50,123 bases of DNA from positions 1 to 50,123 of the forward strand of contig JBDTZG010000042.1 in NCBI GenBank assembly GCA_040005235.1, given 5' to 3'. The stretch comes from Acidobacteriota bacterium (GTDB lineage Bacteria > Acidobacteriota > Thermoanaerobaculia > Multivoradales > UBA5704). The translations under genes were made by a program, and so were the position numbers. Position 1 is the first letter of the stretch. The number at the start of each line of letters is the position of its first letter. Under the pieces are notes generated by a model. That model did no database searches. It was given only the letters and a program-made list of their open reading frames with translations, and was not told the origin of the DNA. Shown in pieces: positions 25,176 through 50,123 of the stretch.

Positions 25176-25199
25176 GGTCGAATTTCCTGTTCCGCGGTC

Positions 25200-25355
25200 C
25201 TAGAAGGTCAAATAGAGCTCAAGAGCATAGATGACGATGGGATGCACCGCATCCTGGGCCAAGAGCACCAGGAAGCTCGCACAGGTCACCACCGACAGGA
25301 CCAGCGAGCTCGAAACACGGGGAAGAGCAACGGACTTGCGAACGGAGTCTAACAT
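25200..25355 (-). CDS. 51-aa small membrane protein (absent from ORF track)
   Basis: MLDSVRKSVALPRVSSSLVLSVVTCASFLVLLAQDAVHPIVIYALELYLTF; GAGGAG SD 9 nt upstream; lies between the sigma54 promoter and the RsbW-like gene. Confidence 0.7.
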   Translation of the reverse strand: MLDSVRKSVALPRVSSSLVLSVVTCASFLVLLAQDAVHPIVIYALELYLTF

Positions 25356-25390
25356 GTCGGGCTTCTCCTCATTCTCGCCGACGACTTACC

Positions 25391-25405
25391 GCAAGAGCGT
25401 TGCCA
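25391..25405 (-). promoter_or_regulatory. Sigma54 (-24/-12) promoter
   Basis: Minus strand TGGCAACGCTCTTGC: GG-N10-GC with the TGGCA and TTGC consensus; adjacent to a sigma54 activator gene. Confidence 0.8.
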
Positions 25406-25506
25406 CCCCTGGCGCCCGATCCCTTCGGGCGACCGCAAAGTGTTCTCTCCCCGTTGTTTACGCGAATCGAGAGGGGTTGCGCGCAGGACCTGCTCCACGT
25501 CGCTCA

Positions 25507-25623
25507 TGCGACAAATTGACGCACGTCAAAGCGGGGTACCCGTCGGAGTGCCCGGGAAATGAGCTTCCACCCTGCCGAAATCGGATATCGAGGCAATATG
25601 TCTCGCTGCGTCATTTTGCCACA
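25507..25623. promoter_or_regulatory. Candidate enhancer (UAS) sites for the sigma54 activator
   Basis: Imperfect palindromes TGCGACAAATTGACGCA (25507-25523) and TGCGTCATTTTGCCACA (25607-25623), 100 bp apart and upstream of the -24/-12 element. Confidence 0.55.
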
Positions 25624-25628
25624 GATCC

Positions 25629-30149: not shown

Positions 30150-30155
30150 TCCGCC

Positions 30156-34269: not shown

Positions 34270-34848
34270 ATGAATGAAAAACAACCTGGGGAAATCGGCG
34301 CTCTGCTGGACCAATTCGATGCCGTAGAACGCGACGCAAAGGCACTTGTCGCCGGGTTATCCGAGACGATGGGCACGGCACAGCCAGCACCCGGCAGTTG
34401 GAGCGTGGCCGAGTGCCTGGACCACCTCGCGACCGCCAACCGCGTCTACTTGGCCGCCCTCGAACCGCCGGCGAATCGCGCGAAGAAAGCCGGCCGGCTC
34501 CGCAACCGCCCGGCGAAACCCGGCTGGGCCGGCCGGCTGTTCATCGCCAGCCTCGAACCGCCGCCGAAATGGTGGTCCAAGTTGAAGGCGCCGGGGAAAA
34601 TCCGCCCCCGCCAGGCGCCACCGCTCGCCGGATCCTTCGAGGACTTCATGGCTTCACTCGTCGACGCGCAGGCATTCCTCCAGGCGAACGTCTCTCTGGA
34701 TCTGGCCGGCGTGCGGTTTCCCAACCCCTTCATCCCGGGCGTCGCTTTCAGCCTCGCCACCGGACTTCACATCCTCCCCGCTCACGCCCGCCGCCACCTC
34801 TGGCAAGCCTGGCGGGTGCGGCGGGCGTTGGAGGGTGCGGAGAAATAG
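34270..34848 (+). CDS. DinB-family protein
   Basis: PAPGSWSVAECLDHL and HARRHLWQA metal-binding His motifs. Confidence 0.9.
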   Translation: MNEKQPGEIGALLDQFDAVERDAKALVAGLSETMGTAQPAPGSWSVAECLDHLATANRVYLAALEPPANRAKKAGRLRNRPAKPGWAGRLFIASLEPPPKWWSKLKAPGKIRPRQAPPLAGSFEDFMASLVDAQAFLQANVSLDLAGVRFPNPFIPGVAFSLATGLHILPAHARRHLWQAWRVRRALEGAEK

Positions 34849-34914: not shown

Positions 34915-37389
34915 GTGCTAATCTGCGCGGGACATCGCGATCATGCGCCGAAGCTGAACCGCGAGGCGCGAGCCTTCCCGGTACTTCGGCTCGGGGAGGC
35001 GGAGATCGACACCTCGGAACACCCGGAAGTCATCGCTCCGTACGGCCTCGGGCTCCCTTCCATCGAGGTGCTCGACGTCAAAAAGCGCGCGTGGGCGCGC
35101 TTCCGTGAGATTCCCGGCGTTCATGCGGTGGGCATCGGGTGCCGAACCGTCGCCGGGACGCGGACGGACGAACCGGCGATCGTCGTGTTCGTTTCCCGAA
35201 AGAAGCCGCTCCACGAGCTGGCAGGCGCGGACGTGGTGCCGCCCCTCGTCGAAGGCGTCGCGACGGACGTGGTCGAGATGCGGCCTCCGTGGCTGATGCA
35301 AGGGCCCTCGATCCAGGTGAACCCCACGGCTCTCGGGGGGCCGGGCGGCGGATCGAGCTTCGTCCTCTCGGGCACGGATCCCGTCGCCACCGGATTGATC
35401 GTGGTCGTGACCGTGACCACGACGCCGGCCAATCCGGCGCAAAAGATTCAGAGCTTCTTTCAGTCCGCCGTCACCAACGGCAGCTCGAACCTCGCCGAGA
35501 TCGCGACCGCCCTCGCCCGTTTCCCTTCGCATCGACCGGTGACGGCAACATCGTCTGGAAACACGCTTCAGGTCGTCGGCAGCGCGGGCAACACGGCCGC
35601 CGTGCACTGTTATGTGCTGACGCGGGATTCCGGTCTTTACCCCGAGCTTCGCGGCGGCATTCAACTGGGCGGCCCGAAAGGGGAGGTCGGCACGCTGGGG
35701 TGCCTCGCGACGACCGGCGCGGGTGACGTCGTTGCGCTGACCAACGAACATAACGTCTGGGATCCGGGCTATTTCTTTCCTCATCTCGCGGTCGACGCGA
35801 CGCTCTCGACGATCACGATCCAGGAGTTTGCGACACCCCGCCCCGGCCGACCCCATTCTCTCGTCGTCGCTCGGTTCATCCTGCGCAACCAGCCGGAGAC
35901 GATGGCGCTCTACTCGACGACCGAAACGGATACCGTTCAAACCATCGTGGCCGGCTTGATCACGGCGATCAATCAATCGGCCGCCAGCCTCGGCGTGCAG
36001 GCGAAGCCCGGCTCGTCGAGCCCCACGAAAGCGACCCTCACGCTCACCGGGCCGATCCAGCCGGACGACGTCGTGCTGTGCGAAATGTACGGACCTGTCG
36101 AGCCGGATCCGGACGCCCGTCTGCTCGTGCGGACCGTGCCGAGCCCGTCGGGGATTACGCTGACGTTTTCGGGCACTTTGACGCGGCGGAAGCGCTACGG
36201 CATCTTCGTGCGCCTGAGCCGGGGCGGCTCCCTACCTTCTCTCGGCACGTTCGTCGATCCGACCGGCAAGAGCCTCGATCAAATCGCGATCGACGTCGCC
36301 GCCGCTCTCAACGTGATCGCACCTGGGAGCGCAAGCCGGAGCGGAGCGGCAGTCACGGTCCTTAACGCTCAGGAAGTCGAGTGCGTGATCGAGCCCGATA
36401 CCCGCGTCGGTCATCCGACGGCTTTCTTCCTTGGGGACCTACCGTTCCCTTGCTCGCAGCGGATCGGCCGCGTGATCGACGCCCGGTTGGAGATCGACGT
36501 CGCGCTCGTCCGCCTCGATCCCGGCATGCGATACCTACCGCGCATCGAAGGAATCGGCGCGGTCGATGGGGTCGTCCCGAAGAGCCTGCTGGCACCCGGG
36601 CTCGCCGTTCAGAAGAGGGGTGCGGCCTCCGGGATCACCACGGGCCGCATCGCGGCCACGGCGACGGAAGGCGTGATCTTCTCCTCCCGGCATGCGGGCG
36701 CAAACAGCCTGCGGCGCTACTACACGAACGCGATGGTCATCGAGTCGACGACGCGCGACAGCCCCACGAGCCCTGTCCGGCCGTTCCTCGTCGGTGGCGA
36801 CTCGGGGGCCGCCGTGGTGACGACGGAGACGGGTCGGGTTCGCGTCGTCGGCTTGCTGTTCGGAGGAGACGAGGGGACGGCCGGGCTCGCATCGCCGATC
36901 GACGAGATCGTCAACGCGTTCGCGACGACCCATCAGCTCTCGTTCGACCTCGCACCGGGTCAGGATCCAAACGCCGTCCGAACGGTGCCGGCGGTGTCGG
37001 GCGCGGCTCCGCCCATCCCCCGGCAAGCTCTGCGGCAACCCGCCTTCGGCCTGCCGGAGGTCGCGGACATGATCCGTCGGCATTTCGCCGAGGGGAGAGC
37101 CCTCGTCGCCGATCATCGCCGCGCGGCGGCCATCTGGCGGAACAGCGGCGGGCCGGAGATCCTGGCCGCCCTGTTGGCGCCGCTCGACCGCCTGGATCGG
37201 CCCCTGCCGAGCGCGATCGACGGCCGACCGTTCGCGGACTGCCTCGCGCGCATTCAGCGCGCGTTCCTTCGCTATGCGAGCCCGGAGTTTTCGCGCGACT
37301 TGATCCGCTGCGTGCCGCGGATCGCGTGCGAGTCCGGTCTGACCGACTCGGAGCTGCTCGAAATCTTTCGAGCCGCACCCGCGGACTAG
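34915..37389 (+). CDS. Trypsin-fold serine protease with Nal1-like N-terminal domain and inserted repeat domains
   Basis: PGVHAVGIG...EPAIVVFVSRKKP...VATDVVE (Nal1-N-like); GTLGCL, LTNEH (His), IDVALV (Asp), VQKRGAASGITTGRI, GGDSGA (Ser), VVGLLFGG; start codon uncertain. Confidence 0.85.
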   Translation: MLICAGHRDHAPKLNREARAFPVLRLGEAEIDTSEHPEVIAPYGLGLPSIEVLDVKKRAWARFREIPGVHAVGIGCRTVAGTRTDEPAIVVFVSRKKPLHELAGADVVPPLVEGVATDVVEMRPPWLMQGPSIQVNPTALGGPGGGSSFVLSGTDPVATGLIVVVTVTTTPANPAQKIQSFFQSAVTNGSSNLAEIATALARFPSHRPVTATSSGNTLQVVGSAGNTAAVHCYVLTRDSGLYPELRGGIQLGGPKGEVGTLGCLATTGAGDVVALTNEHNVWDPGYFFPHLAVDATLSTITIQEFATPRPGRPHSLVVARFILRNQPETMALYSTTETDTVQTIVAGLITAINQSAASLGVQAKPGSSSPTKATLTLTGPIQPDDVVLCEMYGPVEPDPDARLLVRTVPSPSGITLTFSGTLTRRKRYGIFVRLSRGGSLPSLGTFVDPTGKSLDQIAIDVAAALNVIAPGSASRSGAAVTVLNAQEVECVIEPDTRVGHPTAFFLGDLPFPCSQRIGRVIDARLEIDVALVRLDPGMRYLPRIEGIGAVDGVVPKSLLAPGLAVQKRGAASGITTGRIAATATEGVIFSSRHAGANSLRRYYTNAMVIESTTRDSPTSPVRPFLVGGDSGAAVVTTETGRVRVVGLLFGGDEGTAGLASPIDEIVNAFATTHQLSFDLAPGQDPNAVRTVPAVSGAAPPIPRQALRQPAFGLPEVADMIRRHFAEGRALVADHRRAAAIWRNSGGPEILAALLAPLDRLDRPLPSAIDGRPFADCLARIQRAFLRYASPEFSRDLIRCVPRIACESGLTDSELLEIFRAAPAD

Positions 37390-37394
37390 CCGCC

Positions 37395-40300
37395 ATGCCG
37401 AGCCGACCGAGCACGTTCGAAGCGCTGGCGCAGCAGATCGGCTCCGCGTTGGAACCGCTCCACATTCGGCTCGCGCCCGAAAACGTGCTCGCGTTCCTCG
37501 CGGAGCTCGGGCTCCGATTCCCGCCGGACCTCCTGCAGCCGGCGTTCGTCGCGAAGTTGAACGTCGGGTCCGGGGCGGCTGGGGCGCTCGGCAATACGCT
37601 CCAGCAGCTCGCGGCGAGCCTCGCCGCAGGCAACAGCGTGGGCGTCGCCTCGAACGTCGCTCAGCTCGGCCAGGAGGTTCGAAGCCTCCTCGCGGCGCTC
37701 CCGGCGATCGGGACCGAGCTGGTCAACCGTGCCAGCTCGCTGCCGGGCATGAACGCGGCCGAGGTCACGAGCTTCGGACAACAACTTCCCGCGAGCATTC
37801 TCGGTCATGCGCTGATCTCTCACCTCGAAGAGGTCCAGCCCTGGATCGTGGGCGTCGCGAACCTTCTCGGCGTCGTCACCGTGCGCTCGGACGATGGCGA
37901 TCCGCGGGACCCCGCGCATCCGGCGCACACCGTCCGAAAGCTGCAACTCTCGAAGCTCGGCGAGGCTCTGACCGCGCCGGCCGCACGGCTGAGGGCGCTA
38001 TATCAATGGGGCGATCCGGGCTTCGACGGCACGAAGCTGATTCCGGCCCTCGGCACGTCATTGACTCTCTTGGGCATAAACGCCGAGATTCCGCATCCCG
38101 AGCCTCCCGATTCGTTGCGGTCCGGCTTCTTCAGCCTCAAGGCGAACACCAGTCCGCCCGGCCTCTCGGCGTCGCTGCACTACGACCTGCCTGCCGGACT
38201 CGACATCACCCTTCCGCTCGGCGGGTCGTGGTCGATCCGCGGGCAGGTGCAGGGTGACTTCAAGGCCGGTCTCGACGCGTCGATCGTGGCTCCCGCGAAG
38301 GTCTCCATGAAACCCGCCGCCGGCACCCTCTCGGGGTCGCTTGAGGTCGACCTCGTGGCGAAGGGGCCGGACCCGAATCACCCCCTCATCCTCCTCGGCG
38401 AAGCCGGCGGCAGCCGCCTGCAGACGGATTCCGTCACGCTCGGCGCCGGACTGGCGGTTCACTGGAACGCCGCCGCCGGCTCGGCCACCGGCGAGCCGTT
38501 GATCCAGATGGAGGTCCGCGGCGGCAAGGCCGTCATCGACACCTCGAACGCCGACGGCTTCATCGCGAAGATCCTCGGCGGTTTTCCGCTCGAATGCGAC
38601 TTCGACTTCGGCGCCACCTATTCGATCGGGGAGGGGTTGCGTTTCCGGGGCAGCGGCACCCTCGACATCCAGCTCGTCCAGCACCTCACGCTGGGGCCGG
38701 TGGCGGTCGACAACCTGACCCTTTCGCTCGGCATCAAGGGCGATGCCTTTCCGCTCGCCGTCACGGCCGATCTCGAAACCTCCCTCGGCCCCTTGACCGC
38801 CGTGGTCCAGGGCTTGGGCTTTGAGGTCGCGATCGCGCTCCGGTCGGACAACTCGGGCAATCTCGGGCCGGTCGACATTCATCCCGGATTCCGCTCGCCG
38901 ACCGGCGTCGGCCTCTCGGTCGATGCGGGCGGCTTCAAAGGCGGCGGCTTTCTGTCGATCGATACCGCAAAAGGGGAATACGCCGGCGGTCTGGAGCTCG
39001 ACTTCCTGGGCATCGTCACGGTCAAGGCGTTCGGGCTCCTGAACACGAAGTTCCCCGACGGCCATCGCGGGTTCGCGCTCGTGATCATCATCTCCGCCGA
39101 GTTCCCGCCGATCCAGCTCGGGTTCGGCTTCACGCTGGTGGGCGTGGGCGGGCTGCTCGGCCTCAGCCGGACCGTGGACACGGACGCGATGCGCGACGGC
39201 ATCCATCAGGGCGCGCTCGACAGCGTGCTCTTCCCGCGCGACGTCGTCGCCAACGCGCCGCGCATCGTCAACGACCTGCGCCGGCTGTTCCCGCCGTTCG
39301 AGGGGCATTTCCTGGTCGGTCCGATGGTCAAGTTCGGCTGGGGGACGCCGACCATCCTCAGCCTCGAATTCGGGCTGATCCTGGAGATTCCCCGGCCCGC
39401 CTTCGTGATGATCGGCCGGCTGCGCGCCGGGCTGCCGTTCCAGGCCCTGCCGCTGTTCGACATTCGCCTGACGTTCGCGGGCGGCGTCGATTTCGCGGCC
39501 GGCCAGCTCTGGTTCGACGCCACTCTCCACGACTCGCGGCTCCTCACCTTCGCGCTCACCGGCGACATGGCGGTGCGCCTCTATTGGAAAGAGAACGCCA
39601 ACTTCATCCTCACCGTCGGCGGCTTCCATCCGTCCTACGTCCCGCCGCCGATGGGGCTCGGCTCGCTCCAACGCTTAGGCATTACGATCTTCGAGGGCCA
39701 GCCGCGGCTCCGTGCGGAGACCTATTTCGCGATCACCTCGAACACCGTGCAGTTCGGCGCGAAAGCGGAGCTGATGTACGGGATCGACATCTTCAACATC
39801 TTCGGCTTCATCGCCTTCGACGTCCTGATCCAGTTCGACCCGTTCCGCTTCGTGGCCGAGCTGACGGCGATGCTGGGGGTGCGCACCGGTTCCCACGTGT
39901 TGATGGGCATCCGGATCGACGCACTGGTCGAAGGGCCGAAACCCTGGCACGCCAAAGGCACCGGCCATTTCGAGATCAGCCTGATCATCTCGATCGAATT
40001 CGACGTCGACTTCGAAGTGAGTTTCGGCGATGAGGCGCACGAGTCGCTGCCGAAGGTCGACGTGCTGCCGCAGCTGGCGGCGGCCTTGGCCGAACCGAAC
40101 AACTGGCGAGCGGTCACCCCGGCGGGAACCAACGTCCAGGTCACCCTGCGAGAGTGGAAGACCGAGCCGGGCACGGTGATCCTCCATCCGTTCGGCTCGT
40201 TGGAGGTGACCGAAAAGCTCGTGCCGCTAAACCTGCCCGTCGATAAGCTCGGCACGCAGCACATCGGCGACGGCCGCGTGTTCGGCGTCGAGCAGGTGTT

Positions 40301-40814
40301 GTTGGGCAAGGCGCCGGGCCAGATCGCCCCGCTCCGAGAGCAGTTCGCTCCCGCGCAGTTCATCGAGATGAGCGACGCCCAAAAGCTCTCCAGCCACTCC
40401 TTCGAGCGGTACGAGGCGGGCGTCCAAGTGGGCGGCGGCGACGCCGTGAACGCCACCTACGTCAAGCACCTCCTCCTCGAATACGAGGTCGTCTACATCC
40501 CCGAGCATAGGAAGCGGATCACCTTCAAGCTCGCGCAGGCGATCTTCAACGTGTTCCGCGGCAGCGGCGCCGTGGGGCAGTCGCCGCTGTCGGCGGCGCA
40601 GACGGCGCCCTCCGTCCTCGGCGCGCCGCGGGCGCAGGTCGTAGGCGAACAGTTCGCGGTGGCTTCGACGGTAGACCTCACGCTCCATGGCGAACGGATG
40701 GTCTTCCTCTCCGAGGCGGAGGCGCGCGCCGCGATGCGCGACGCCATCGATCGCGATCCCTCGCTGACCCACATGCTCCAGGTGATTCCGTCTACCCTCG
40801 TGAGGGCCGCATGA
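37395..40814 (+). CDS. DUF6603-like large beta-rich protein, 1139 aa
   Basis: Start placed at ATG 37395, 5 nt after the protease stop; GVGLSVDAGGFKGGGFL...YAGGLEL...PIQLGFGFTLVGVGGLLG and VGGFHP...YFAITSNTVQFG motifs recognised from DUF6603 proteins. Confidence 0.8.
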   Translation: MPSRPSTFEALAQQIGSALEPLHIRLAPENVLAFLAELGLRFPPDLLQPAFVAKLNVGSGAAGALGNTLQQLAASLAAGNSVGVASNVAQLGQEVRSLLAALPAIGTELVNRASSLPGMNAAEVTSFGQQLPASILGHALISHLEEVQPWIVGVANLLGVVTVRSDDGDPRDPAHPAHTVRKLQLSKLGEALTAPAARLRALYQWGDPGFDGTKLIPALGTSLTLLGINAEIPHPEPPDSLRSGFFSLKANTSPPGLSASLHYDLPAGLDITLPLGGSWSIRGQVQGDFKAGLDASIVAPAKVSMKPAAGTLSGSLEVDLVAKGPDPNHPLILLGEAGGSRLQTDSVTLGAGLAVHWNAAAGSATGEPLIQMEVRGGKAVIDTSNADGFIAKILGGFPLECDFDFGATYSIGEGLRFRGSGTLDIQLVQHLTLGPVAVDNLTLSLGIKGDAFPLAVTADLETSLGPLTAVVQGLGFEVAIALRSDNSGNLGPVDIHPGFRSPTGVGLSVDAGGFKGGGFLSIDTAKGEYAGGLELDFLGIVTVKAFGLLNTKFPDGHRGFALVIIISAEFPPIQLGFGFTLVGVGGLLGLSRTVDTDAMRDGIHQGALDSVLFPRDVVANAPRIVNDLRRLFPPFEGHFLVGPMVKFGWGTPTILSLEFGLILEIPRPAFVMIGRLRAGLPFQALPLFDIRLTFAGGVDFAAGQLWFDATLHDSRLLTFALTGDMAVRLYWKENANFILTVGGFHPSYVPPPMGLGSLQRLGITIFEGQPRLRAETYFAITSNTVQFGAKAELMYGIDIFNIFGFIAFDVLIQFDPFRFVAELTAMLGVRTGSHVLMGIRIDALVEGPKPWHAKGTGHFEISLIISIEFDVDFEVSFGDEAHESLPKVDVLPQLAAALAEPNNWRAVTPAGTNVQVTLREWKTEPGTVILHPFGSLEVTEKLVPLNLPVDKLGTQHIGDGRVFGVEQVLLGKAPGQIAPLREQFAPAQFIEMSDAQKLSSHSFERYEAGVQVGGGDAVNATYVKHLLLEYEVVYIPEHRKRITFKLAQAIFNVFRGSGAVGQSPLSAAQTAPSVLGAPRAQVVGEQFAVASTVDLTLHGERMVFLSEAEARAAMRDAIDRDPSLTHMLQVIPSTLVRAA

Positions 40815-43800
40815 GCTTCGGCACGTACTCGTTTCTGCCCTGGCTGCGGCGCGGCATCGCGAACCAGCTGGAGCAGCCCGCCGCGACGGCGAGCCGCGCG
40901 GAGCTGTCGGTCACGGTGCGCGTCCGCTCGGACGTCACGACGCTCGACCTCGCGCCCAAAAAGGTCCAACTGATCGGACCGGGCGACATTCTCGGCGTCA
41001 ACGCGCAGATGACCCTTCGGACCGAGCCGCGCCACGGGGTCGCGACGTTCGAGCCGAACTATCTCGCCTACGTCGATTTCTACGACGAGGACTTCGCCTG
41101 GCGCTATACGCCCGACCTCCCCGACCTCGCCCGGCACCGGCTCACCCCTTGGATCACCCTGCTGGTGTTGAAAGACGACGAGCTGACGGCGCTCAAAAAG
41201 CGGCCGCTGCCGGCGATCGAGCTGACGGCCGCCGCCCACCTCGAAGAGATCCTTCCTCCGGCGGACCAACTGTGGGCCTGGGCGCACGTGCATCTGAACG
41301 AGCCCTTGGGCAACGACGGCGCGCCGAACCTCGACCTCCTCGGCTCGCTGCTGCGGAAGAATCCCGACCTCGGGTACTGCCGCCTCCTCTCGCCGCGCCG
41401 GCTCGAACCCAACACCCGGTACCGCGCGTTCGTCATCCCGACGTTCGAGGTCGGCCGGCTGGCCGCCCTCGGCGAGCCGGTGCCCGACAACGTGCCCGGG
41501 CTGAAGATCGCCTGGGAGACCTCTCGCACCTTCCCGATCTATTACCAATGGGGGTTCGGCACCGGAGAGGCCGGCGACTTCGAGGATCTGGTGAAGGCTC
41601 TGGTTCCCCGCGACATCGACGAGCGCGTCGGCCTGCGGAAGATGGACGTGCAACAGCCCGGATTTCACCTGGCTCCGCCGACCGGGCAGCCGGGCAACGT
41701 CGTCGGTCTCGAAGGCGTTCTTCTCGCACCCACGACGAAGCACGTGCCGGTCGATCCCGCCTGCGACCTGCCCGAGACCCTCGCCGTCGAGGTCAACCGC
41801 CCGGCCGAGGCGGAGGCCACGGGCCTGCCCGCCCCTGTCCCCGGCCCCGCCCCAGACTCCGACACCGAAGACCCCCTGATCAGCATCCCGCTCTATGGCC
41901 GGTGGCACGCCCTGGTGAACCGCGTGCAGCCGTTTCCGGAGCACCGCGTCTGGATCGACGAGCTAAACACCGATCCGCGCTTTCGCGCCGTCGCGGGCAT
42001 GGGAACCAAGGTCATCCAGGCGAACCAGGAGAGCTACATGAAGCTCGCCTGGGAGCAGATCGGCGACGTCCTCGGCCTGAACCGCAAGATCGCGTTCCTG
42101 CAACTCGCCGTCAAAGCGAGCGACGCGCTGTACGCGAAGAGCCTCGTCTCCTTAGCGACCGAGAGCGCGCTCGCCATCGCGTCACCGGTGATGCGAAAAG
42201 TCCTGGGAAGCCCGGTGACCGTGCACACGCTGGTGCAGCAAAGCCGCCTTCCCCGCGCGGCGCTCTCCGGCGCGATGCGCAAGCAGCTGCGCCCGCGCGG
42301 GCAGTTGGCGCGGCGCGCGTTCGGAGGTGTGGAGGAAGCGGGAACGCCGCGAGGCAACCCGCAGCCGCTCGCGGCGATGATCGCGGGATTGAACGCGGGA
42401 ACGCTCACCGCCGCGCCGCCGCGGCCGGCGCCTGCCGGCGCGACATACGAGAGCACGCTTCAATCCGTCGCCGCGCGGTATTCCGACCGGCTCCGCTTCC
42501 TCGCGTCGAATCGCCTGGCGTTCCTCCTGCTCGCGCTCGCGCTGCTCGCACTTCTCGTTCTACTCGTCGCCGCGACCGCCGCAGCGCCCGTGGTGACGGT
42601 CCTCGCGCTCGCGGGCGCCGCTGCCTCGGCCATCGCCTACGGCAGGCTCGGACCGATTGCGAAGGCGATCGCGACCGTCGATGCGTTCCAGCCGCAGGCG
42701 CTCACCCCTGAGGCGATCGCGGCGTTGCCGGAAAACGACGCCTTCGTGCTGTCGGCGGCCAATTCGGAGGCACTGACGACACCCGCGGCGCCCGCGAGGT
42801 CTCCGACCGGCGGACCCGATTCAGTGCAAGGAGCGGCGTTCCGCCAAGCGGCGCTCCGGTTCAACGCTCTGCTCGCCGACCGTCCGGCGCCGCTCGTCGC
42901 CCGCGAGCCTCTGGCGCTCGCGTCCGTGCACGCGAAAATGATCCAGGCGTTGCAACCCGCGCCCGCGTTCGGCGCCCGCCACTCAGAAAGACTGTCGGTC
43001 GCGCGCGAACCGTTCTCTCACTACGTCGCCGGCTATCACGACGCCGTGCCCAAGCCCGCGGAGCCGCGCTTCGTTCCGGTGATGGCCTACCCGGACATCA
43101 AGCTCCCGATGTACCGGCCGCTCAAGGATCTCCAGAAGGACAACTTCGTCCCCAACCTCCACCTGGTGCCGCCGGACACGATCTCGCTCATGCTCACCAA
43201 CCCGCCGGTGATCGAGTCCTACATGGTCGGCCTCAACCACGAGTTCGCCCGCGAGCTGCTCTGGCGCGAGTACCCGACGGATCAGCGGCCCAGCACGTTC
43301 CGGCAGTTCTGGGACGCGTCGCACTACGTCCCCACCGAGAAGCTCTCCGCCGAAGAGCTGGCGGAGAAGATCCGCGACATCCGCCGCCTTCACGAATGGC
43401 CGGCCGAGACCCCCCTCGGCACGCACCTCAACCGCCAACCGGCGGACAGCCGGCCGCGCGTCGTCCTGGTCATTCGCGGCGAGCTGCTGAAGCGGTATCC
43501 CAACACCATCCTGTACGCCCAGAAGGCGCGCTGGGGAGGTCCGCCCGACCACCAGGACCACCTTCTGCTCTACGATCAGACCGGCGAGAAGGCGGACCCG
43601 CAGGTCGCCGATCCGAACTTCCGGTACCCGATGTTCCGCGCCCAGGTGGAGCCGGACCTCTATTTCGTCGGCTTCGACCTGCTGCTCGACGAGGTGCGCG
43701 GCGACCCGGCCCTCGAAGAGACCGCCGCGTCGCGCGCCCGCACCAACCCCGATCGCCTCGGCTGGTTCTTCGTCCTCCAAGAGGCCGTGGGCGAGCCGCG

Positions 43801-44068
43801 ATTCGGGCTCGACGAGCATGCCGTCACCTCGACCGACGACGCGAAGACGCCGAAGTGGGACAACTTGTCGTGGGAGAACCTGGGGCCTGCCGTGAAGATC
43901 ATCGACCTCGCGAAACCGTTCGCCAGCGAGCCGCCCCACCCCATGTTGACCGACGGAGCGAGCTGGAACAGCCATGCCGCCGACCTCGCCTTCATCCTCT
44001 ATCAGAAGCCCGTGCTGGTGGCGATCCACGCCCGGGACATGCTGAAAAATCTCAAGGCGCCAGCGTAG
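40811..44068 (+). CDS. Large hypothetical protein, 1085 aa, with internal hydrophobic hairpin
   Basis: ATGA overlap with the previous gene; YSFLPWLRRG N-terminus, AWEQIG, NHEFARELLWREYPTDQR, LVIRGELLKRYPN and GWFFVLQE...PRFGLD motifs. Confidence 0.88.
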   Translation: MSFGTYSFLPWLRRGIANQLEQPAATASRAELSVTVRVRSDVTTLDLAPKKVQLIGPGDILGVNAQMTLRTEPRHGVATFEPNYLAYVDFYDEDFAWRYTPDLPDLARHRLTPWITLLVLKDDELTALKKRPLPAIELTAAAHLEEILPPADQLWAWAHVHLNEPLGNDGAPNLDLLGSLLRKNPDLGYCRLLSPRRLEPNTRYRAFVIPTFEVGRLAALGEPVPDNVPGLKIAWETSRTFPIYYQWGFGTGEAGDFEDLVKALVPRDIDERVGLRKMDVQQPGFHLAPPTGQPGNVVGLEGVLLAPTTKHVPVDPACDLPETLAVEVNRPAEAEATGLPAPVPGPAPDSDTEDPLISIPLYGRWHALVNRVQPFPEHRVWIDELNTDPRFRAVAGMGTKVIQANQESYMKLAWEQIGDVLGLNRKIAFLQLAVKASDALYAKSLVSLATESALAIASPVMRKVLGSPVTVHTLVQQSRLPRAALSGAMRKQLRPRGQLARRAFGGVEEAGTPRGNPQPLAAMIAGLNAGTLTAAPPRPAPAGATYESTLQSVAARYSDRLRFLASNRLAFLLLALALLALLVLLVAATAAAPVVTVLALAGAAASAIAYGRLGPIAKAIATVDAFQPQALTPEAIAALPENDAFVLSAANSEALTTPAAPARSPTGGPDSVQGAAFRQAALRFNALLADRPAPLVAREPLALASVHAKMIQALQPAPAFGARHSERLSVAREPFSHYVAGYHDAVPKPAEPRFVPVMAYPDIKLPMYRPLKDLQKDNFVPNLHLVPPDTISLMLTNPPVIESYMVGLNHEFARELLWREYPTDQRPSTFRQFWDASHYVPTEKLSAEELAEKIRDIRRLHEWPAETPLGTHLNRQPADSRPRVVLVIRGELLKRYPNTILYAQKARWGGPPDHQDHLLLYDQTGEKADPQVADPNFRYPMFRAQVEPDLYFVGFDLLLDEVRGDPALEETAASRARTNPDRLGWFFVLQEAVGEPRFGLDEHAVTSTDDAKTPKWDNLSWENLGPAVKIIDLAKPFASEPPHPMLTDGASWNSHAADLAFILYQKPVLVAIHARDMLKNLKAPA

Positions 44069-44074
44069 AGGCCC

Positions 44075-47000
44075 ATGGCAGAAAACGACAACCTCGAAGA
44101 GATCCATCGCGCCGCCGCGGCCGCCCGCGAGGTGCGGGACGCCGCGCGCGCCGGCCTGCGCAAGAGCGCGCTGCGCCTTCAGACCGTCGAGCGCGAATTG
44201 GCCGACCTGCGCCGCCGGACGACCCGGGACCCGCAGGACCCGGGCGCCCGCGCCGTCGCCGAGCTGGAGCGCGAGCAAGCCGCCCTTAGCGAGAGCGTGA
44301 ACGTGGACCGGCGCGGCCTCGCCGCCGGCCGCGAGCGGGTGAACGCCGCGCTCCAGCCGTTGTTTCTCGACCCCGAGCTGCGGGTCTCCCAGCTCGACGA
44401 CGAAGCGCCTTTCGTCCTGTTTCCGGTGCGCATCGAGACGAAGTTTGCGGACTCGGCCAACGGCGCCGAGCTGCGCGTGCGCATCTTCCCCGACGACATC
44501 GCCGTCGCTCACCACGAGAAGGCGCTCACGGCCGGCGAACGAGACATGGGCGAGAGCTACTGGCGCTCCCGCGCGCTCGCCAACGCCGCGGCCACGGCGG
44601 AAGAGCGCGAGAAGCAGCAGCGCGGCGCATGGAACGCGATCGCCTCGCGCTATGGCGCCTATCGCACCGGCTGGATCACGAAATCGACCCAGCCGGACGA
44701 TTGGTCCGACGCTTCGACCGATCCCAAAGCGTTGGTTTTTCCGGTGCTGGAGACGAAGCCTCTCGGCTGGAGCGACACGCCGCGATCTCCGGTGATGCCG
44801 GACCGGTTCGCGGTCGTGCTCGAACGCGGGAAAGACTCGCGCACCGTCTGGGGCAACCTCGTGCCCGACGATCTGCCGCTGGGGCCCGATCCGCTCCAAG
44901 CCGAGGGCTTCCTCACCCGCGACGAGACGACCCACCGGCTGAAGATCTCGGACGACTTGCGCTGGCTGATCGACTTCGCCCAGGCCGAGGCGGTCGGGAT
45001 GGGCGTGCGGATTCCGCTCACGCGCGTCGAAAGCATCGAGGGCTTCAGCCGGATTCTCGTCATCGGCCTCCGGCTCTCCACCGATCGCGCCGGCAGCGCG
45101 GGTTTGGTCTCCCGCCTGTTCGAAAGCCACCGCTACAGCCAGGGCGTATCGATCGTGCCGCAGGGGACGCCGACCAACAACACCGACGAGGCGCGCTCAG
45201 GGCTCGCGACACCGGGCGAGTCCGTCGATGAGACCTACCTGCTGGAGCACGATCCGAAACCGTTTCCGACCTCGACCGAGCCGATGCGCCGATTGGACGG
45301 CGAGCGCCTGGCCGACGCTCTCGGCCTACCGCTCGATCTCGTGCGCACGCTGCCGAACGCGCAGGGCGCGGACATCGCCGAATCGGTGGCGATGAACCGC
45401 GCGCTCTGGAGCGGCACGCTGGGAAATTTCCTCGCGGAGATGCTCGAAGGCGCGTTTTCGGCCGCCGACGTCCGTCGGGTACAAAGCTTTCTCACCGAGT
45501 GGGTCCACGGCCGCGGGCTGGTCCCCGCGCTACGCGTCGGCTCGCAGCCCTACGGAGTCGTGATCACCAGCTCCTTCGACGACTGGGCGTGGAGCGAGAT
45601 CGAGCGCGGCGACGACGGCGATTTCTGGGATCGGCTGCAAACGCAGCTCGGCCTCCTGCGGGAGCATTGGACACGGGTCGCCAAGTCGGACGTGCGGTTC
45701 GTCGGCAAGCGAGAAGGCAGCGGCAAGCTCCTCGATCCGTTCGAGACGCTGATCGACATAGTGGGTCTGCAAGCCAGCTCGGTCGAATTCGAGTCGCGCA
45801 CCGGCGTGCCCGACTCCTACTTGAAGGCGCTCGCGGCATACGCCGGCAACGATCCGGATTTGGTCAAGAATTGGATCGCCAACGCGAAGAACCTCCGCGA
45901 TGCCGATCTCGCCAACGTGCACCTCCCGCGGAGCGACAAGAAGGCGCTGCCGCACGTGCTCTTCCTCGAAAAAGCGGAGAGAGTGACCTCTCCAATCATC
46001 GATGGCGATCCGGCCGTTCCGCTGTCGGAAACGCGGACGATCCGCCCCTACGACGGCGTGCCCGCGCACAACTACATCTCCTGGCTCGCCACCGCGTCGA
46101 GCGCCGATCTTGCGAACCAGAACTTTCCGGGCGCCGACGGCAAGCTCGTGCCGCGGCCCACCGCGCTGCTCTACAAGCTGCTCCGCGTCTCGACCCTCGC
46201 CGAGCTGTACACGTCGAGCCGCCTGCTCACCGAACGCGTGCGCGCCGACGTGTTCGAGGAGATCGCGAAAGTGGGAGATATCGCGAACATCGCAGAGCCG
46301 GCCTTGATGCCCGGGCACTTCGCTCTGGTTGATACGGCGAAGATCGGCCTGACCGCCACCAGCCTCTCGACCGGCGATTACCTTCTCGACCATGCGCGGG
46401 CGGCGACGCCGATTCTGCAAAAGCCGCCGGAGGCGGCAGCGCTCGCCGCTCTCACGGAGGCGTTGACCCTGTTGGCGGACCTGCCGACGGCGCGGCTGGA
46501 GCGGCTGCTCGCCGAGCACCTCGACGTCATGTCGTACCGCCTCGACGCCTGGCTGACGGGCCTGTTCGCCCGCCGCCTGGCCTACCAGCGGCACCGCCAG
46601 CAGACGCCGGGGACCCATCTCGGCGCCTACGGCTGGGTCGAGGACGTGCGGCCGGCGAAAGATCGCCGAATGGTCCAGGCCGCGCAGATTCCCGGCGAGC
46701 TGCAACCGGCGATCGACGGGCCGGTCGTCACCTACGCGAACAACGGCGGCTTCGTCCAGGCGCCGTCGCTGACCCACGCGGTCACCGCGGCCGTCCTGCG
46801 CAACGCGTACCTAACCCACGCCGAAGACACCGTGGACGCCGTGGATGCCAAGGACGGCAAGGCGCGCCGCATGGCCGTCAATCTATCTTCCGCCCGCGTG
46901 CGCATGGCGCTCTCGTACATCGAGGGACTTCAGAACGGGCAGGAGCTGGGCGCGCTGCTCGGCTACCAGCTCGAACGCGGACTGCACGAGCGGCATCCGC

Positions 47001-49081
47001 GCATCGAGCTCGACCACTTCATCTACGTGTTACGCCAGCGGTTCCCGCTGATCTCGAAGAAGCTGACCTCGGCGCCGGACAGCACGGCGGCCGAGGTGAT
47101 CGAAGCGCGGAACGTCGTCAACGGCTACGATCTGCTCGATTTCGTAAAAATCAAGGATTACCCATACGAGATCACCGGCCTGCCGCCCGCGAATGGCACC
47201 GCCGCGGAGGCGAAGCAGGCGACCGCCATCGGCGAGGAGGTGGACCGGCTGCGCGACGCGATGGACGCCATCGCCGACCTCCTGCTCGCCGAAAGCGTCC
47301 ACCAGGTCGTGCAGGGCAACTACGCCCGCGCCCGCGGCGCCGTCCAGGCTCTCACCGACGGCGAGCAGCCGCCGCTTCCCGAGGTGGTGCAGACGCCGCG
47401 CATGGGCCAATCCCTCACCCATCGCGTCGCGCTGTATCTGGATCCGGCGGCGGTCGCGGGCTGGCTTATGACTCTTACTCCGCGCGCGGCGGCGAACGCC
47501 CCTCTCAACCACTGGCTGTCGACCGTGCTCCCCCCCGCGGCGGACATCCAGTGGCGGATCACCTTGAGCGGCGGCGCGCCGGAATTCTTGAGCGTCGCCT
47601 CGCTCGCGCTCGAACCGATCGACCTCGTGCTGATGTGCGGCGAGCGCCTCGGGGATCTGACCAGCCCGCTCGAACAGCTGCTGATCCGCGATTTCCGCAT
47701 CGCGCACGGCGTCGCGGACGACGTCGCGACGTTCGCGTTCGAGAAGACCGACCCGACGATCCCCGACGCGAAATCGCTGGTGTTCGATCCCGACAGCGCG
47801 CAGTCCGGCAAGCCTTCGCTGGGCAGCCTGCTCCCGCTGCTCAAGGCTCTCCGGCGTCTCGTCACCGGCGCGCGGCCGTTGGGTGCGACCGATCTGATGC
47901 GCCCCACCGAGGCGCAGCACGCGCACCCGGAAAATCCTAACGGCACCGACGGAGCCACCGCGCCTTTGAAGGACCTGGGCGAGCTGAAAGGCCGCCTCGA
48001 AGCCGCGCACACCGCGCTTACGGCGATTCAAGCCCAGTTGCAGGCGCGGGTCGCCACCCTGGCCCCCCTCGCCGAGGCGCTCGAAAAGGATCCGGATCTC
48101 GCCGTGCAGCCGGCGTGGAGCGCGCTGGTACCGCAGTTGCGCACGATTCTCCGCAGTCTCATTTTGTTCGGCATGCCGGAAGCCCTGCCCTCCGACGGGC
48201 TCGCCATCAGCCGAGCGCTGGTCCGCACCGACTTCGCGCAAGCTGCGAGCGTTCAGCATCTCGTCGAGGAGAGGCTCGCCCGGTCTCGCGAGCTTCTCGA
48301 CACCGCGTTCCCCGCTCCCCCGCCGGGCGACCCCGCGGAGGTGGCCCGGGCGATGGGCGCGCGGGTGGCCGCCCGCATGGACGCCTATACCGAAGCCGCG
48401 CGGCTGTTGCTCGGCGCCGACTACGTCCCCGTGCCGCTGTTTGCCGCTCACGCCGAAAGCGTACCCGAGCTGACCCAAGCAGCCGCCGTGCCGGTCGAGA
48501 GCGACGCGCTGGCGATCGAGTCGTGGCAGCAGGCGATCGCTCACGTCCGCCCGGTCCTTGCGGCGTGGGATCTCCTTGCGACCTATCGGGATTGGCTGGG
48601 CGAACCGCCGCTCGATCTCGTGCCGCTCCAACTGCCGGTGGCGCCGGGGGCGAAATGGATCGGCGGCACGTACGGCGACACGGTGAGCGCCGCCGACGTC
48701 GTGTCGATCGCGATCCACCCGGTCCCCGCGAGCTTCGCCTCCCCGATGGCCGGCTTGCTGATCGACGAATGGACGGAGCTGGTGCCGTCGCCGAACGTGA
48801 CCACCGGCATCGCCATGCACGTCAATCGGCCGAACGCCGTGGCGCCGCAGGCCCTGCTGGTCGCGGTGGCGCCGCGGCAATCGGGACAGTGGGCGTTTTC
48901 CGATCTCGTCGCGATCCTCCACGACACGCTCGATCGCGCGCGGCTCCGCGCCGTCGAGCCCGACGACATCGGTTCGCCCTATTTTCAGGCGCTGCCGCCG
49001 ATCGTGGCCGCGTTCGACGATTCGATGCTGATGGCGGCGGCGAAGTTTTCAGGAATCGCGGCTCTCAAGGTCGAGCGCTAG
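44075..49081 (+). CDS. Very large hypothetical protein, 1668 aa
   Basis: GAGG SD, 6 nt after the previous stop; N-terminal coiled coil; FPVRIETKF...LRVRIFPDD, QGTPTNNT, SYRLDAW, LGYQLERGL and DEWTELVP...PNAVAPQALL motifs. Confidence 0.9.
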   Translation: MAENDNLEEIHRAAAAAREVRDAARAGLRKSALRLQTVERELADLRRRTTRDPQDPGARAVAELEREQAALSESVNVDRRGLAAGRERVNAALQPLFLDPELRVSQLDDEAPFVLFPVRIETKFADSANGAELRVRIFPDDIAVAHHEKALTAGERDMGESYWRSRALANAAATAEEREKQQRGAWNAIASRYGAYRTGWITKSTQPDDWSDASTDPKALVFPVLETKPLGWSDTPRSPVMPDRFAVVLERGKDSRTVWGNLVPDDLPLGPDPLQAEGFLTRDETTHRLKISDDLRWLIDFAQAEAVGMGVRIPLTRVESIEGFSRILVIGLRLSTDRAGSAGLVSRLFESHRYSQGVSIVPQGTPTNNTDEARSGLATPGESVDETYLLEHDPKPFPTSTEPMRRLDGERLADALGLPLDLVRTLPNAQGADIAESVAMNRALWSGTLGNFLAEMLEGAFSAADVRRVQSFLTEWVHGRGLVPALRVGSQPYGVVITSSFDDWAWSEIERGDDGDFWDRLQTQLGLLREHWTRVAKSDVRFVGKREGSGKLLDPFETLIDIVGLQASSVEFESRTGVPDSYLKALAAYAGNDPDLVKNWIANAKNLRDADLANVHLPRSDKKALPHVLFLEKAERVTSPIIDGDPAVPLSETRTIRPYDGVPAHNYISWLATASSADLANQNFPGADGKLVPRPTALLYKLLRVSTLAELYTSSRLLTERVRADVFEEIAKVGDIANIAEPALMPGHFALVDTAKIGLTATSLSTGDYLLDHARAATPILQKPPEAAALAALTEALTLLADLPTARLERLLAEHLDVMSYRLDAWLTGLFARRLAYQRHRQQTPGTHLGAYGWVEDVRPAKDRRMVQAAQIPGELQPAIDGPVVTYANNGGFVQAPSLTHAVTAAVLRNAYLTHAEDTVDAVDAKDGKARRMAVNLSSARVRMALSYIEGLQNGQELGALLGYQLERGLHERHPRIELDHFIYVLRQRFPLISKKLTSAPDSTAAEVIEARNVVNGYDLLDFVKIKDYPYEITGLPPANGTAAEAKQATAIGEEVDRLRDAMDAIADLLLAESVHQVVQGNYARARGAVQALTDGEQPPLPEVVQTPRMGQSLTHRVALYLDPAAVAGWLMTLTPRAAANAPLNHWLSTVLPPAADIQWRITLSGGAPEFLSVASLALEPIDLVLMCGERLGDLTSPLEQLLIRDFRIAHGVADDVATFAFEKTDPTIPDAKSLVFDPDSAQSGKPSLGSLLPLLKALRRLVTGARPLGATDLMRPTEAQHAHPENPNGTDGATAPLKDLGELKGRLEAAHTALTAIQAQLQARVATLAPLAEALEKDPDLAVQPAWSALVPQLRTILRSLILFGMPEALPSDGLAISRALVRTDFAQAASVQHLVEERLARSRELLDTAFPAPPPGDPAEVARAMGARVAARMDAYTEAARLLLGADYVPVPLFAAHAESVPELTQAAAVPVESDALAIESWQQAIAHVRPVLAAWDLLATYRDWLGEPPLDLVPLQLPVAPGAKWIGGTYGDTVSAADVVSIAIHPVPASFASPMAGLLIDEWTELVPSPNVTTGIAMHVNRPNAVAPQALLVAVAPRQSGQWAFSDLVAILHDTLDRARLRAVEPDDIGSPYFQALPPIVAAFDDSMLMAAAKFSGIAALKVER

Positions 49082-49108
49082 AAGGCCGAACCGGCGAGGA
49101 ACGCTCCC

Positions 49109-50123
49109 ATGGCGAAGTCTCAAATCGAAAACGCGATCGACCTGATGCACGCCGAGGTGAGGTTCCCGCCGGCGATCGTCGGCTGGAACCGCCTCGAAGG
49201 CAGGCCGCGGACGGCGCAGTTCGATCGCGCGCTCCGCGCCGAAGTGCGCGACGCGCTCTGGTTCCTCACCCGCCAGTGGCAGTTCGGTGAATTCAAAGGG
49301 GAAGACGCCGGCTCGCCGGTCGAGGTCCGGACGGCCGTGCGGGTCGATCCGCTCCAGCACTATGCCGTCCACGGCCAGGGGGCGATCGCTTATGACCCGG
49401 AGGTGGCGCTCGAAGCGCACGTCGAGCGAGAAAAGGTCGCCTTCGATCTGGTGATCCATTCCCAGGTCACGCGAACGTTCTGGCGCTTGATCGACGCCGT
49501 GGTCAAGACGCAGCCCACGATCAAGGCGATGTATCTAGCGGGCTACCCTCTCCTAGCGGTCGCAGGCGTCGCCGACCCCGACGGGGAGCACGCTCTCCAA
49601 ATCGGCCTCACCCGCACGCTCGATGCCGGGAAGCTGCTCGACGAAACGGTGGGCACCGCGCACGACGCAAGGGTCGACGGATTCGCGCTCCCGGCCGCCG
49701 ACAAGGCTCTCCTCAAGCAGGCGGGGCGCGACCTGCGCGCCTGGTTCTTCGCCCAATTCAGTCAGCCGAGCAGCGATCTGGGCGATTCCAGCGACCCCAG
49801 CGCTTCCGGAGACATGGCCTGGAACGCGCGGTTCCTCGAATACCAGTTCGCCGTCGCGACCGACACGGCCGACCGCGGCCAGACGGTGCTGCTCGCCGAC
49901 CAGTACGCGAACGGGCACCTCGACTGGTTCGCTTTCGATGTCGATGCCGCACCCGCGGCGGCGCTCAACCGCAAGGACGGCAGCGCCGCGGTGCCGACTC
50001 CCGCCAACGTCACTCCCCTTTCGTTCATCCCCGCTCCCGTCTCGTTCGGCGGCATGCCGAGCCACCGTTATTGGGAGATGGAAAGCCGGCAGATCGAGTT
50101 CGCCGACATCGACGCCCACACGA
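49109..50123 (+). CDS. Hypothetical protein, partial (runs off the window; not in ORF track)
   Basis: GAGGA SD then ATG 49109; open to the end: MAKSQIENAI...WNRLEGRPR...DALWFLTRQWQFGEFKGEDAGSP...GHLDWFAFD...FGGMPSHRYWEME. Confidence 0.88.
   Translation, partial: MAKSQIENAIDLMHAEVRFPPAIVGWNRLEGRPRTAQFDRALRAEVRDALWFLTRQWQFGEFKGEDAGSPVEVRTAVRVDPLQHYAVHGQGAIAYDPEVALEAHVEREKVAFDLVIHSQVTRTFWRLIDAVVKTQPTIKAMYLAGYPLLAVAGVADPDGEHALQIGLTRTLDAGKLLDETVGTAHDARVDGFALPAADKALLKQAGRDLRAWFFAQFSQPSSDLGDSSDPSASGDMAWNARFLEYQFAVATDTADRGQTVLLADQYANGHLDWFAFDVDAAPAAALNRKDGSAAVPTPANVTPLSFIPAPVSFGGMPSHRYWEMESRQIEFADIDAHT

Follow-up and report, generated by a model that had tools for sequence, protein, structure and literature searches.

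Tc (ABC) toxins are operon-encoded and leaderless, comprise several very large subunits together with an enzyme payload, and have a patchy, plasmid-borne occurrence. Extracellular contractile injection systems (eCIS; PVC and Afp) are leaderless particles that are found in Bacteria and Archaea and have variable neighboring payload genes. In the accessible text on the Streptomyces umbrella toxins, UmbC is described as having a twin-arginine translocation (Tat) signal, ALF repeats, and a C-terminal toxin, and UmbA's trypsin-like domain as catalytically inactive (PMC11062931). The accessible text on NARROW LEAF 1 (NAL1) describes a cage-forming serine protease (PMC12012508). Here, we analyzed an operon of five genes (g1 to g5) at the end of an Acidobacteriota contig (JBDTZG010000042.1), which in its entirety is the window of this study (G000:C113; 50123 bases). 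The last four genes, g2 to g5, constitute a conserved module of giant proteins that is preceded by a variable enzyme slot, occupied here by a predicted protease (g1), and the enzyme is swapped together with the N-terminal domain of g2 as a cassette. We tentatively read the g2–g5 proteins as an enzyme-carrying, probably extracellular complex that would be toxin-like or prey-digesting.

Conserved four-gene module and its distribution

The five genes are tightly packed open reading frames (ORFs) on the + strand and fill positions 34915-50123 of the window (Table 1). The junctions, as read from the DNA, consist of a 5-nt gap between g1 and g2, an ATGA overlap between g2 and g3, a 6-nt gap between g3 and g4, and a 27-nt gap between g4 and g5. 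The contig stops inside g5, at residue 338. A congeneric sister genome (G003:C46) contains a complete module, which lies in a different genomic context and whose g5 is 606 aa in length, with 91% identity over residues 1-338. A search of the assembly with residues 339-606 of the sister-genome g5 found no C-terminal half elsewhere. A preliminary description of this DNA had reported the ORF sizes, junctions, and common orientation, of which every checked detail was correct, and had proposed that the operon runs past the window, in agreement with the truncation of g5 by the contig end.

To obtain related loci, one genome per species was scanned with degenerate patterns and the g3 alignment. At least 596 stretches were matched; 540 of the 596 listed stretches were confirmed as g3, and the best 80 loci were kept. 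Gene order was scored with hidden Markov models (HMMs) built from these 80 loci and searched back. The order g2-g3-g4-g5 was compatible with 78 of the 80 loci, comprising exact matches (60 loci), split or tandem ORFs (3 loci), and cuts by a contig or locus end that were consistent with the order (15 loci). The two misfits were L038, which had no g4 in the 2.6 kb past g3, and L049, which had the arrangement g4-g5-enzyme-g2-g3. Across the loci, g2 was mostly 1116-1177 aa, g3 was 1012-1179 aa, complete g4 was approximately 1600-2000 aa, and g5 was mostly 565-653 aa. No gene cluster downstream of g5 was common to more than three of the 80 loci. Based on these data, the conserved unit is g2-g3-g4-g5, which ends at g5 and excludes the protease. 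The proteins bearing the motifs quoted in the preliminary description, which had linked them with DUF6603, thus co-occur with it in order in 78 of the 80 loci, and the proposal of a conserved multi-subunit machine around the DUF6603 protein is supported by a co-occurring four-gene module. The same neighborhoods defined the extent of that module: a core of four genes, a variable slot upstream, and nothing conserved downstream.

According to record titles, the 80 loci spanned at least 12 bacterial phyla. The titles included Acidobacteriota, Alpha-, Beta-, and Gammaproteobacteria, Actinomycetota, Bacteroidota, Verrucomicrobiota, Chloroflexota, and Nostoc, and further Planctomycetaceae, Polyangiaceae, Gemmatimonadota, Ignavibacteria, Heliobacteriaceae, and Deferribacteres. 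In two Polyangia genomes, the order was maintained although the copies were divergent. Thirteen plasmid records carried the module, from Streptomyces (five), Gemmatirosa, Rhizobium, Paraburkholderia, Nocardia, and four haloarchaea (Natrinema, Salinigranum, Halobellus, and Halalkalicoccus). All four genes were confirmed on two of the Streptomyces plasmids, on the Salinigranum plasmid, and on one scaffold titled 'UNVERIFIED: Bacteriophage sp.'. Chitinophaga, Kribbella, Bradyrhizobium, Nitrosomonas, and Streptomyces are culturable carriers. Close to home the module was rare: searches with g5 found it in 2 of 41 close relatives, the present genome (G000) included, and in 9 of 301 genomes phylum-wide, including G000 and the unpublished G294. 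DNA of the window was also seen in soil and root metagenome runs. The module therefore behaves as an accessory, mobile element, being rare in relatives, present on plasmids, and found in differing contexts, and we counted this behavior in favor of our reading.

The scaffold in a phage collection (L091; MT835531.1, human fecal) is 40 kb in length, unannotated, and holds the final part of g2 and, after it, g3, g4, and g5; it may be a bacterial contig mislabeled as phage. A prophage or phage origin of the module was rejected, as this UNVERIFIED scaffold was the lone phage-collection match and g2-g5 had no match in PHROG. Two further arrangements were observed among the loci. L035 is a tandem with the order g4-g5-protease-g2-g3-g4-g5, and in the permuted L049 the enzyme is PhoD-like and the next 10 kb contain neither g4 nor g5.

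Variable upstream enzyme slot and cassette exchange

The g1 protein matched the Pfam family NAL1_N at the borderline of its cut-off (27.2 bits; cut-off 27) and PHROG 20754, annotated as 'protease', with an E-value of 1.2e-18. The Pfam Trypsin model gave weak matches, in relatives only. A catalytic triad was found in trypsin order, consisting of His279, Asp528, and Ser630, and Ser630, already singled out in the preliminary description, lies within a GDSG motif. The triad was retained in 45 of 50 aligned members of the g1 cluster. Approximately 250 residues are inserted between His279 and Asp528, and the C-terminal helical tail of g1 is common to its bacterial cluster. On the basis of this sequence evidence, g1 is a NAL1-like, trypsin-fold (S1-type) serine protease with predicted activity.

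Next to g2, such a protease is one of several possible occupants. As the slot occupant we counted an ORF of 200 aa or more, in the same orientation as g2, whose end lies no farther than 1.3 kb from that gene; 67 of the 80 loci had one. These fell into a protease cluster (30 loci), an M64-like cluster (11), a PhoD-like cluster (6), three clusters with no family (7, 5, and 2), and singletons (6); the cluster labels rest on Pfam searches with 10 slot representatives. Among the five representatives of the protease cluster, two gave weak trypsin-type matches and three gave none. Peptidase_M64 was found in both representatives of the M64-like cluster and PhoD in the single representative of the PhoD-like cluster, and nothing in Pfam matched the representatives of two clusters with no family. 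The protease cluster was present as one to five tandem copies. By eye, the ends of L016 and L062, which are in the protease cluster, appear subtilase-like; HExxH-like ends were also seen by eye among the slot occupants. The slot of the Salinigranum plasmid encodes a PhoD-like/DUF7800 protein, that of one Streptomyces plasmid a 1514-aa PG_binding_1 protein, and a Big_3_5 (Ig-like) protein was also found upstream in relatives. None of the slot proteins had an N-terminal signal peptide, as judged by eye. We concluded that the slot is variable and encodes an interchangeable enzyme; the preliminary description had called the operon 'protease-led', which holds for 30 of the 67 loci.

One slot family with no assignment, of approximately 370-400 aa (L014, L015, L019, L030, L060, L063, and L070), starts with MDYAFAPG; a further motif conserved in it is (S/T)H(G/A)N(D/A)xG. 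This motif may resemble the His-Gly site of caspase-like peptidases; Pfam gave nothing for L014.

Hydrolases were also found fused to DUF6603. Fifty-five longer DUF6603 proteins (2078-2952 aa) were listed, many of which contain Abhydrolase_1 and others apolipoprotein-like repeats, all N-terminal to DUF6603. An Abhydrolase_1/PGAP1-like domain and DUF6603 thus occur in one polypeptide. The apolipoprotein-like repeats had mixed Pfam scores (76 and 39 bits versus cut-offs of 90 and 36). A search for fused alpha/beta-hydrolase-DUF6603 proteins in 101 Polyangia genomes and in plasmids returned unfused forms only.

Comparison with the sister genome showed how the slot varies between near-identical modules. 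The DNA of the window was 91.8% identical to G003:C46 from position 38394 to the contig end. Positions 35005-38393 had no detectable DNA similarity to it, and 95 nt were similar at the start of g1. The upstream flank was unrelated to the window within the 40 kb of C46 examined. At the protein level, g1 was 32% identical to its counterpart (47% over the first ~100 residues), and g2 was 36-56% identical over residues 1-340 and 90-100% identical over residues 400-1139. Because g1 and the g2 N-domain diverge together and the rest is near-identical, the sequences indicate that the enzyme and the g2 N-domain were exchanged as one cassette. A corresponding trend was found among 66 loci, in which, at equal identity of the DUF6603 part, the g2 N-domains were more alike when the upstream gene belonged to the same family. 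In the 0.5-0.6 identity bin, for example, the mean N-domain identity was 0.31 for the same family versus 0.215 for different families. The residual of this co-variation, with relatedness among the loci left in, was +0.080 and was reached by 0 of 2000 label shuffles. The cassette swap, the co-variation, and the fused hydrolase-DUF6603 proteins together suggest that the g2 N-domain is the likely adaptor, or docking site, for the upstream enzyme.

These results bear on the model of the preliminary description, in which the upstream protease is a dedicated maturase and would arm the machine by cutting at least one of the giant subunits. The protease with its intact triad lies only 5 nt upstream of g2, the triad is conserved in its relatives, other slot occupants are peptidase-like as well (M64-like, and subtilase-like or HExxH-like ends by eye), and the cassette of g1 and the g2 N-domain could equally be a protease matched to its cleavage site. 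However, PhoD-like phosphoesterases occupy the slot in 6 of the 67 loci and on the archaeal plasmid, at least 14 loci have slot families that lack a peptidase signature, and the fused forms carry an alpha/beta-hydrolase. Neither a PhoD-like protein nor a fused alpha/beta-hydrolase is a substitute for a maturation protease, and up to five tandem protease paralogs are hard to square with a single maturase. We therefore regard activation by a dedicated protease as unlikely and prefer to see the protease as a passenger of the complex.

Protein families and predicted structures of the core subunits

The g2 protein matched Pfam DUF6603 (PF20248) with an E-value of 2.7e-128 (429.1 bits; cut-off 27), a genome search agreed on the position (38682-40379), and g2 is a full-length member of this family. 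No match was found for g3, g4, or g5 in Pfam, NCBIfam, PADLOC, or PHROG; for the Pfam check of g5, the sister genome supplied the complete 606-aa protein. All five proteins matched 0 families in PADLOC-DB 2.0.0 (2023 library) at E ≤ 0.01. Single-sequence searches of the PDB with g2, g3, and g4 returned chance-level rows only. Profile searches of the PDB gave nothing for g5, noise at an E-value of 0.2 for g3, coiled-coil or designed helical-bundle noise only for g4, and only helical-bundle or coiled-coil matches, at the N-terminus, for g2. Pairwise profile comparison among g2, g3, g4, and g5 detected no paralogy, the best pair being g4 and g5 at 8.5% probability. In the ESM Atlas, g3 and g4 fell into unnamed clusters only, with no model of either. 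Neither DUF6603 (PF20248) nor DUF7800 was mentioned in the literature searched, from which subscription journals and supplementary files were out of reach.

These families are large. In the g3 family, 3144 homologs were found at E ≤ 1e-3 among 8000 scored candidates, and any name given to them was 'hypothetical'. Of 1.84 billion representatives, 5465 belonged to the g5 family at E ≤ 1e-3; at E ≤ 1e-30 the number was 2307. The alignment of g3 has invariant columns in the motifs YSFLPWLRRG, in the N-terminal domain, and NHEFARELLWREYPTDQR, and that of g4 has invariant columns and the motif FPVRIETKF. All four motifs quoted in the preliminary description were present, and the columns that they occupy in the family alignments are invariant or almost so. 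Its expectation of a large, largely helical subunit was consistent with g4, for which only coiled-coil matches emerged in the profile search, and its statement that no function was known for these proteins agreed with our finding of no characterized counterpart in any library or literature searched.

To obtain structural information, models were predicted with AlphaFold2. The model of the sister-genome g5, from 148 sequences, had a predicted local distance difference test (pLDDT) of 86.2 and a predicted template modeling score (pTM) of 0.83; its least confident part was the most conserved one, the N-terminal ~65 residues. We considered a fold match clear when it covered a domain with a Foldseek E ≤ 0.001 or a Z-score of at least 8. 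Foldseek found best matches with an E-value of 0.04 and a template modeling score (TM) of 0.08 in the PDB, and an E-value of 0.08 in BFVD. A wide VIA-align search over 48161 chains, which is independent of Foldseek, gave a best Z of 6.9 (root mean square deviation 2.5 over 76 residues), a match that covered only the small helical subdomain of residues 110-221, the beta-rich parts having barely been searched as separate domains. According to the model, g5 thus appears to be without a clear known fold match. The model of g3, from 33 sequences, was poor (pLDDT 54.7; pTM 0.29). The fold comparison envisaged in the preliminary description was accordingly carried through for g5, with no clear match in the PDB or BFVD, and the g3 model was too poor for it.

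Complex prediction of g5 with residues 1440-1668 of g4 gave scores of 0.80, 0.76, and 0.78 (median 0.78), with a best control of 0.00. In calibration, 58 of 80 solved complexes attained this mark, as did 2 of 110 mismatched pairs. At least 46% of the contacts were common to the runs, and the pLDDT of the partner was at least 61. The predicted interface consists of g5 residues 565-577, with the invariant R569 and G573, and g4 residues 1566-1583, with the invariant E1568 and P1571. The model supports binding of g4 to g5 and, with it, the subunit interaction that had been proposed for this operon.

Membrane and surface features

A central stretch of ~45 residues in g3 is strongly hydrophobic, with a Kyte-Doolittle maximum of 3.26, and a comparable segment was found in 77 of the 78 g3 homologs of the 80 loci. 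It sits in the least conserved part of the protein. This putative membrane-inserting hairpin fits the membrane-inserting subunit of the preliminary description, and the lack of signal peptides reported there was borne out by a hydropathy scan, in which no N-terminal signal-like segment appeared in g2-g5.

Domains of a different kind were found in relatives of the subunits. One Streptomyces g3 without the hairpin has FG-GAP repeats between the conserved N- and C-domains, the archaeal (Salinigranum) g5 ends in two Lamin Tail Domains (LTD), and one g5 relative gave a weak match to Laminin_G_3 (20.6 bits, below the cut-off of 27.6). Lamin Tail, FG-GAP, Laminin_G-type, PG-binding, and Ig-like domains are usually outward-facing or extracellular. 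The same four proteins were present in diderm bacteria, monoderm bacteria, and archaea, and a machine bound to one envelope type is disfavored because the module occurs in all three. This spread is more easily reconciled with a released or purely cytoplasmic particle than with an envelope-spanning machine.

The same features could be read as those of a self-serving envelope apparatus, which would export, display, or handle at the membrane leaderless hydrolases for nutrient scavenging or envelope remodeling and would not be a weapon. The M64, PhoD, and subtilase families are usually extracellular, yet the slot members lack signal peptides; the hydrophobic hairpin of g3 is nearly universal, some DUF6603 proteins have the apolipoprotein-like amphipathic repeats with mixed Pfam scores, and the DNA occurs in soil and root metagenome runs. 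We nevertheless consider such an apparatus improbable, as the module has no ATPase or other energy-coupling component, its four proteins are shared by diderms, monoderms, and archaea, the hairpin is dispensable in some lineages, and the very patchy distribution is unlike that of a housekeeping role.

Proposed mechanism and alternative explanations

In the mechanism that we propose, g2, g3, g4, and g5 would be subunits of one large stoichiometric complex that is passed on as a whole throughout Bacteria and also in haloarchaea. An interchangeable hydrolase, here the NAL1-like serine protease, would be encoded by the gene or genes just upstream and would ride on the complex as a passenger, with the fast-evolving N-terminal domain of g2 as its dock. 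The leaderless particle would be released or surface-exposed, in the manner of a Tc toxin or an eCIS, and would act outside the producer; export from the producer is an assumption. A target would be engaged via the variable center of g3, through the hydrophobic hairpin in most cases and binding repeats in some, and the particle would bring the hydrolase to this target as an antagonistic or prey-digesting device. We consider an enzyme-carrying, probably extracellular complex of this kind quite possible. With more reserve, the four giant subunits could represent a new class of protein nanomachine that carries interchangeable hydrolases via a swappable DUF6603 adaptor and includes at least one fold unlike solved structures.

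Several observations weigh against this mechanism. A usable fold model was obtained for g5 as the only subunit, and the g4-g5 score is a model confidence derived from custom alignments. The hairpin was absent from the g3 homologs of two Streptomyces plasmids and of Salinigranum. In the neighborhoods of the 80 loci, there was no conserved lysis or secretion gene near the module and no conserved immunity-like gene of at least 100 aa beside the enzyme. The g1-g5 proteins were leaderless by hydropathy and by eye, which bears on export. Profile comparison detected no docking domain shared among the slot families, only two families with no assignment being aligned, at 68% probability, and the test for co-variation did not remove relatedness among the loci.

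An intracellular conflict or anti-phage (abortive-infection) system would share some of these features: the complex would sense infection, and the hydrolase and the g3 hairpin would kill or arrest the cell. The patchy, accessory, plasmid-borne distribution, the effector-like variable slot, and the leaderless state of all proteins are consistent with such a system; the g3 membrane hairpin could serve as an effector, and the sister genome encodes, immediately after the module, an extracytoplasmic function (ECF) sigma factor, an anti-sigma-like protein, and a TPR-CHAT protein. However, none of the five proteins matched the 2023 PADLOC library, and Pfam and NCBIfam revealed no NTPase, nuclease, or known sensor domain. 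Domains that typify extracellular proteins (LTD, FG-GAP, PG_binding_1, and Ig-like) are found in relatives, and nothing downstream is conserved, the CHAT gene included. We give this explanation little credence and retain the extracellular, enzyme-carrying complex as the preferred one. An encapsulin-like arrangement, with a cargo gene upstream of a shell gene, was considered by analogy only and dismissed, as no capsid-like family was matched in Pfam or PHROG.

Three of the four core families have neither a Pfam or NCBIfam model nor a named relative, though they are large and widespread, which leaves approximately 4,500 conserved residues per system to which no role is assigned. Should the complex be an extracellular enzyme-carrying particle, microbes in soil, sediment, and haloarchaeal communities would have a new mechanism for antagonism or feeding, and the particle would also provide new protein folds and a natural, modular pairing of passenger and adaptor. 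Should it act inside the cell, it would represent a conflict system of a new kind.

Feature coordinates and neighboring genes

Table 1. Positions of the operon genes and their domains in the window, and of a duplicated g5 segment in the sister genome.
Feature	Position	Strand	Description
g1	34915-37389	+	824 aa; GTG start; NAL1-like trypsin-fold serine protease (predicted); variable enzyme slot
g2, whole gene	37395-40814	+	1139 aa; DUF6603 protein
g2, N-terminal domain	37395..38414	+	~residues 1-340; helical, fast-evolving; proposed enzyme adaptor
g2, DUF6603 domain	38682..40379	+	Residues 430-995; PF20248
g3	40811-44068	+	1085 aa; unnamed family; conserved N- and C-terminal domains around a variable center
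g3, central hydrophobic segment	42491..42640	+	Residues ~561-610; putative membrane-inserting hairpin (hydropathy)
g4	44075-49081	+	1668 aa; unnamed family; N-terminal coiled coil, FPVRIETKF motif, conserved C-terminal domain
g4, C-terminal domain	48392..49078	+	Residues 1440-1668; predicted g5 binder (model)
g5	49109..50123	+	First 338 residues of a ~606-aa protein; ORF open at contig end
Duplicate g5 tail, sister genome	G003:C27:90864-91946 (L007:10865-11947)	-	Adjoins a DUF2254 membrane protein; no g4 upstream

Besides its complete g5, the sister genome has a second copy of g5 residues 278-606, which is 96% identical and lies on another contig. A duplicated g5 tail of this kind may be the cause of the assembly break at position 50123 of the window. 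Following g5 on G003:C46, the sister genome encodes the ECF sigma factor, a putative zf-HC2 anti-sigma factor (weak match), and the TPR-CHAT protein, which is 1057 aa in length (L006:982-5540; G003:C46:34981-39539). This trio was not conserved at other loci.

Upstream of the operon, the window encodes a divergent 1053-aa Peptidase_S8 subtilase (E 6e-34; 30989-34150, - strand), and a DinB-family gene (34270-34848) lies between the subtilase and the operon. Positions 27219-30962 encode a 976-aa protein with a C-terminal GT4 glycosyltransferase domain, followed by a TauE/SafE exporter; the GT4 protein showed a weak likeness to 'GT4 in conflict systems' (25 bits; cut-off 26). Farther upstream, on the - strand of 22736-27128, are a GAF-SpoIIE phosphatase (22736-24313) and a GAF-sigma54 activator with HTH_8 (25629-27128).

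On the plasmids of Streptomyces sp. NBC_01724 (L088) and S. longwoodensis (L089), the neighbors of the module are annotated in the records as DUF2235, phospholipase D-like, peptidoglycan-binding, Ig-like, and RHS-repeat proteins, a neighborhood that fits an antagonism island. Chitinophaga ginsengisoli has two more DUF6603 genes, which head other operons of large uncharacterized proteins (L098, G043:C2:571500-591400; L099, G043:C7:172500-192400), one of which holds Kelch, PQQ-like beta-propeller, and GH127 proteins. Because neither of these operons contains g3-g5, the DUF6603 platform is wider than the present module.

Comparison with known systems

The g1 protein is related to NAL1 in matching its N-terminal domain at the Pfam cut-off and in having a trypsin-type His/Asp/Ser triad. 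It differs from NAL1, as far as the latter is described in the accessible text (PMC12012508), in the insert between His279 and Asp528 and in the C-terminal helical tail of the bacterial cluster. For g2, the relationship to DUF6603 extends over the full length, and the Pfam family is wider than the module.

The Streptomyces umbrella particles (UmbA/B/C) likewise have paralogous trypsin-like proteins beside a large coiled-coil protein, and the accessible text describes Umb as a secreted antagonistic particle (PMC11062931). Judged against that text, the present proteins differ in having no N-terminal signal, in keeping the triad in most g1 relatives, and in having DUF6603, g3, g4, and g5 as partners; for ALF repeats, no dedicated model was run.

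The likeness to eCIS lies in leaderless proteins, a variable neighboring enzyme gene, and an occurrence in both Bacteria and Archaea. Unlike eCIS or systems resembling the type VI secretion system (T6SS), the module contains no genes for a sheath, tube, baseplate, or AAA ATPase; g2-g5 had no PHROG or Pfam match of that kind, and no other conserved neighbor was found in the 80 loci.

The resemblance to Tc toxins would be functional only, by analogy between leaderless, operon-encoded giants with an enzyme payload and a patchy, plasmid-borne occurrence. In contrast to Tc toxins, g2-g5 had no TcA, TcB, or TcC signature (VRP1/TcA pore or RHS cocoon) in Pfam or NCBIfam and no sequence or profile match in the PDB. 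The payload here is an upstream gene or an N-terminal fusion to DUF6603 and not the C-terminal tip of an RHS protein, and the present module also occurs in haloarchaea. We rate the module as lying outside the known kinds of system, mainly on the basis of sequence; the fold comparison covered one subunit (g5) and gave no clear match. If the nanomachine reading is true, the module would be a delivery or toxin platform ranking with Tc toxins or eCIS and unrelated to both.

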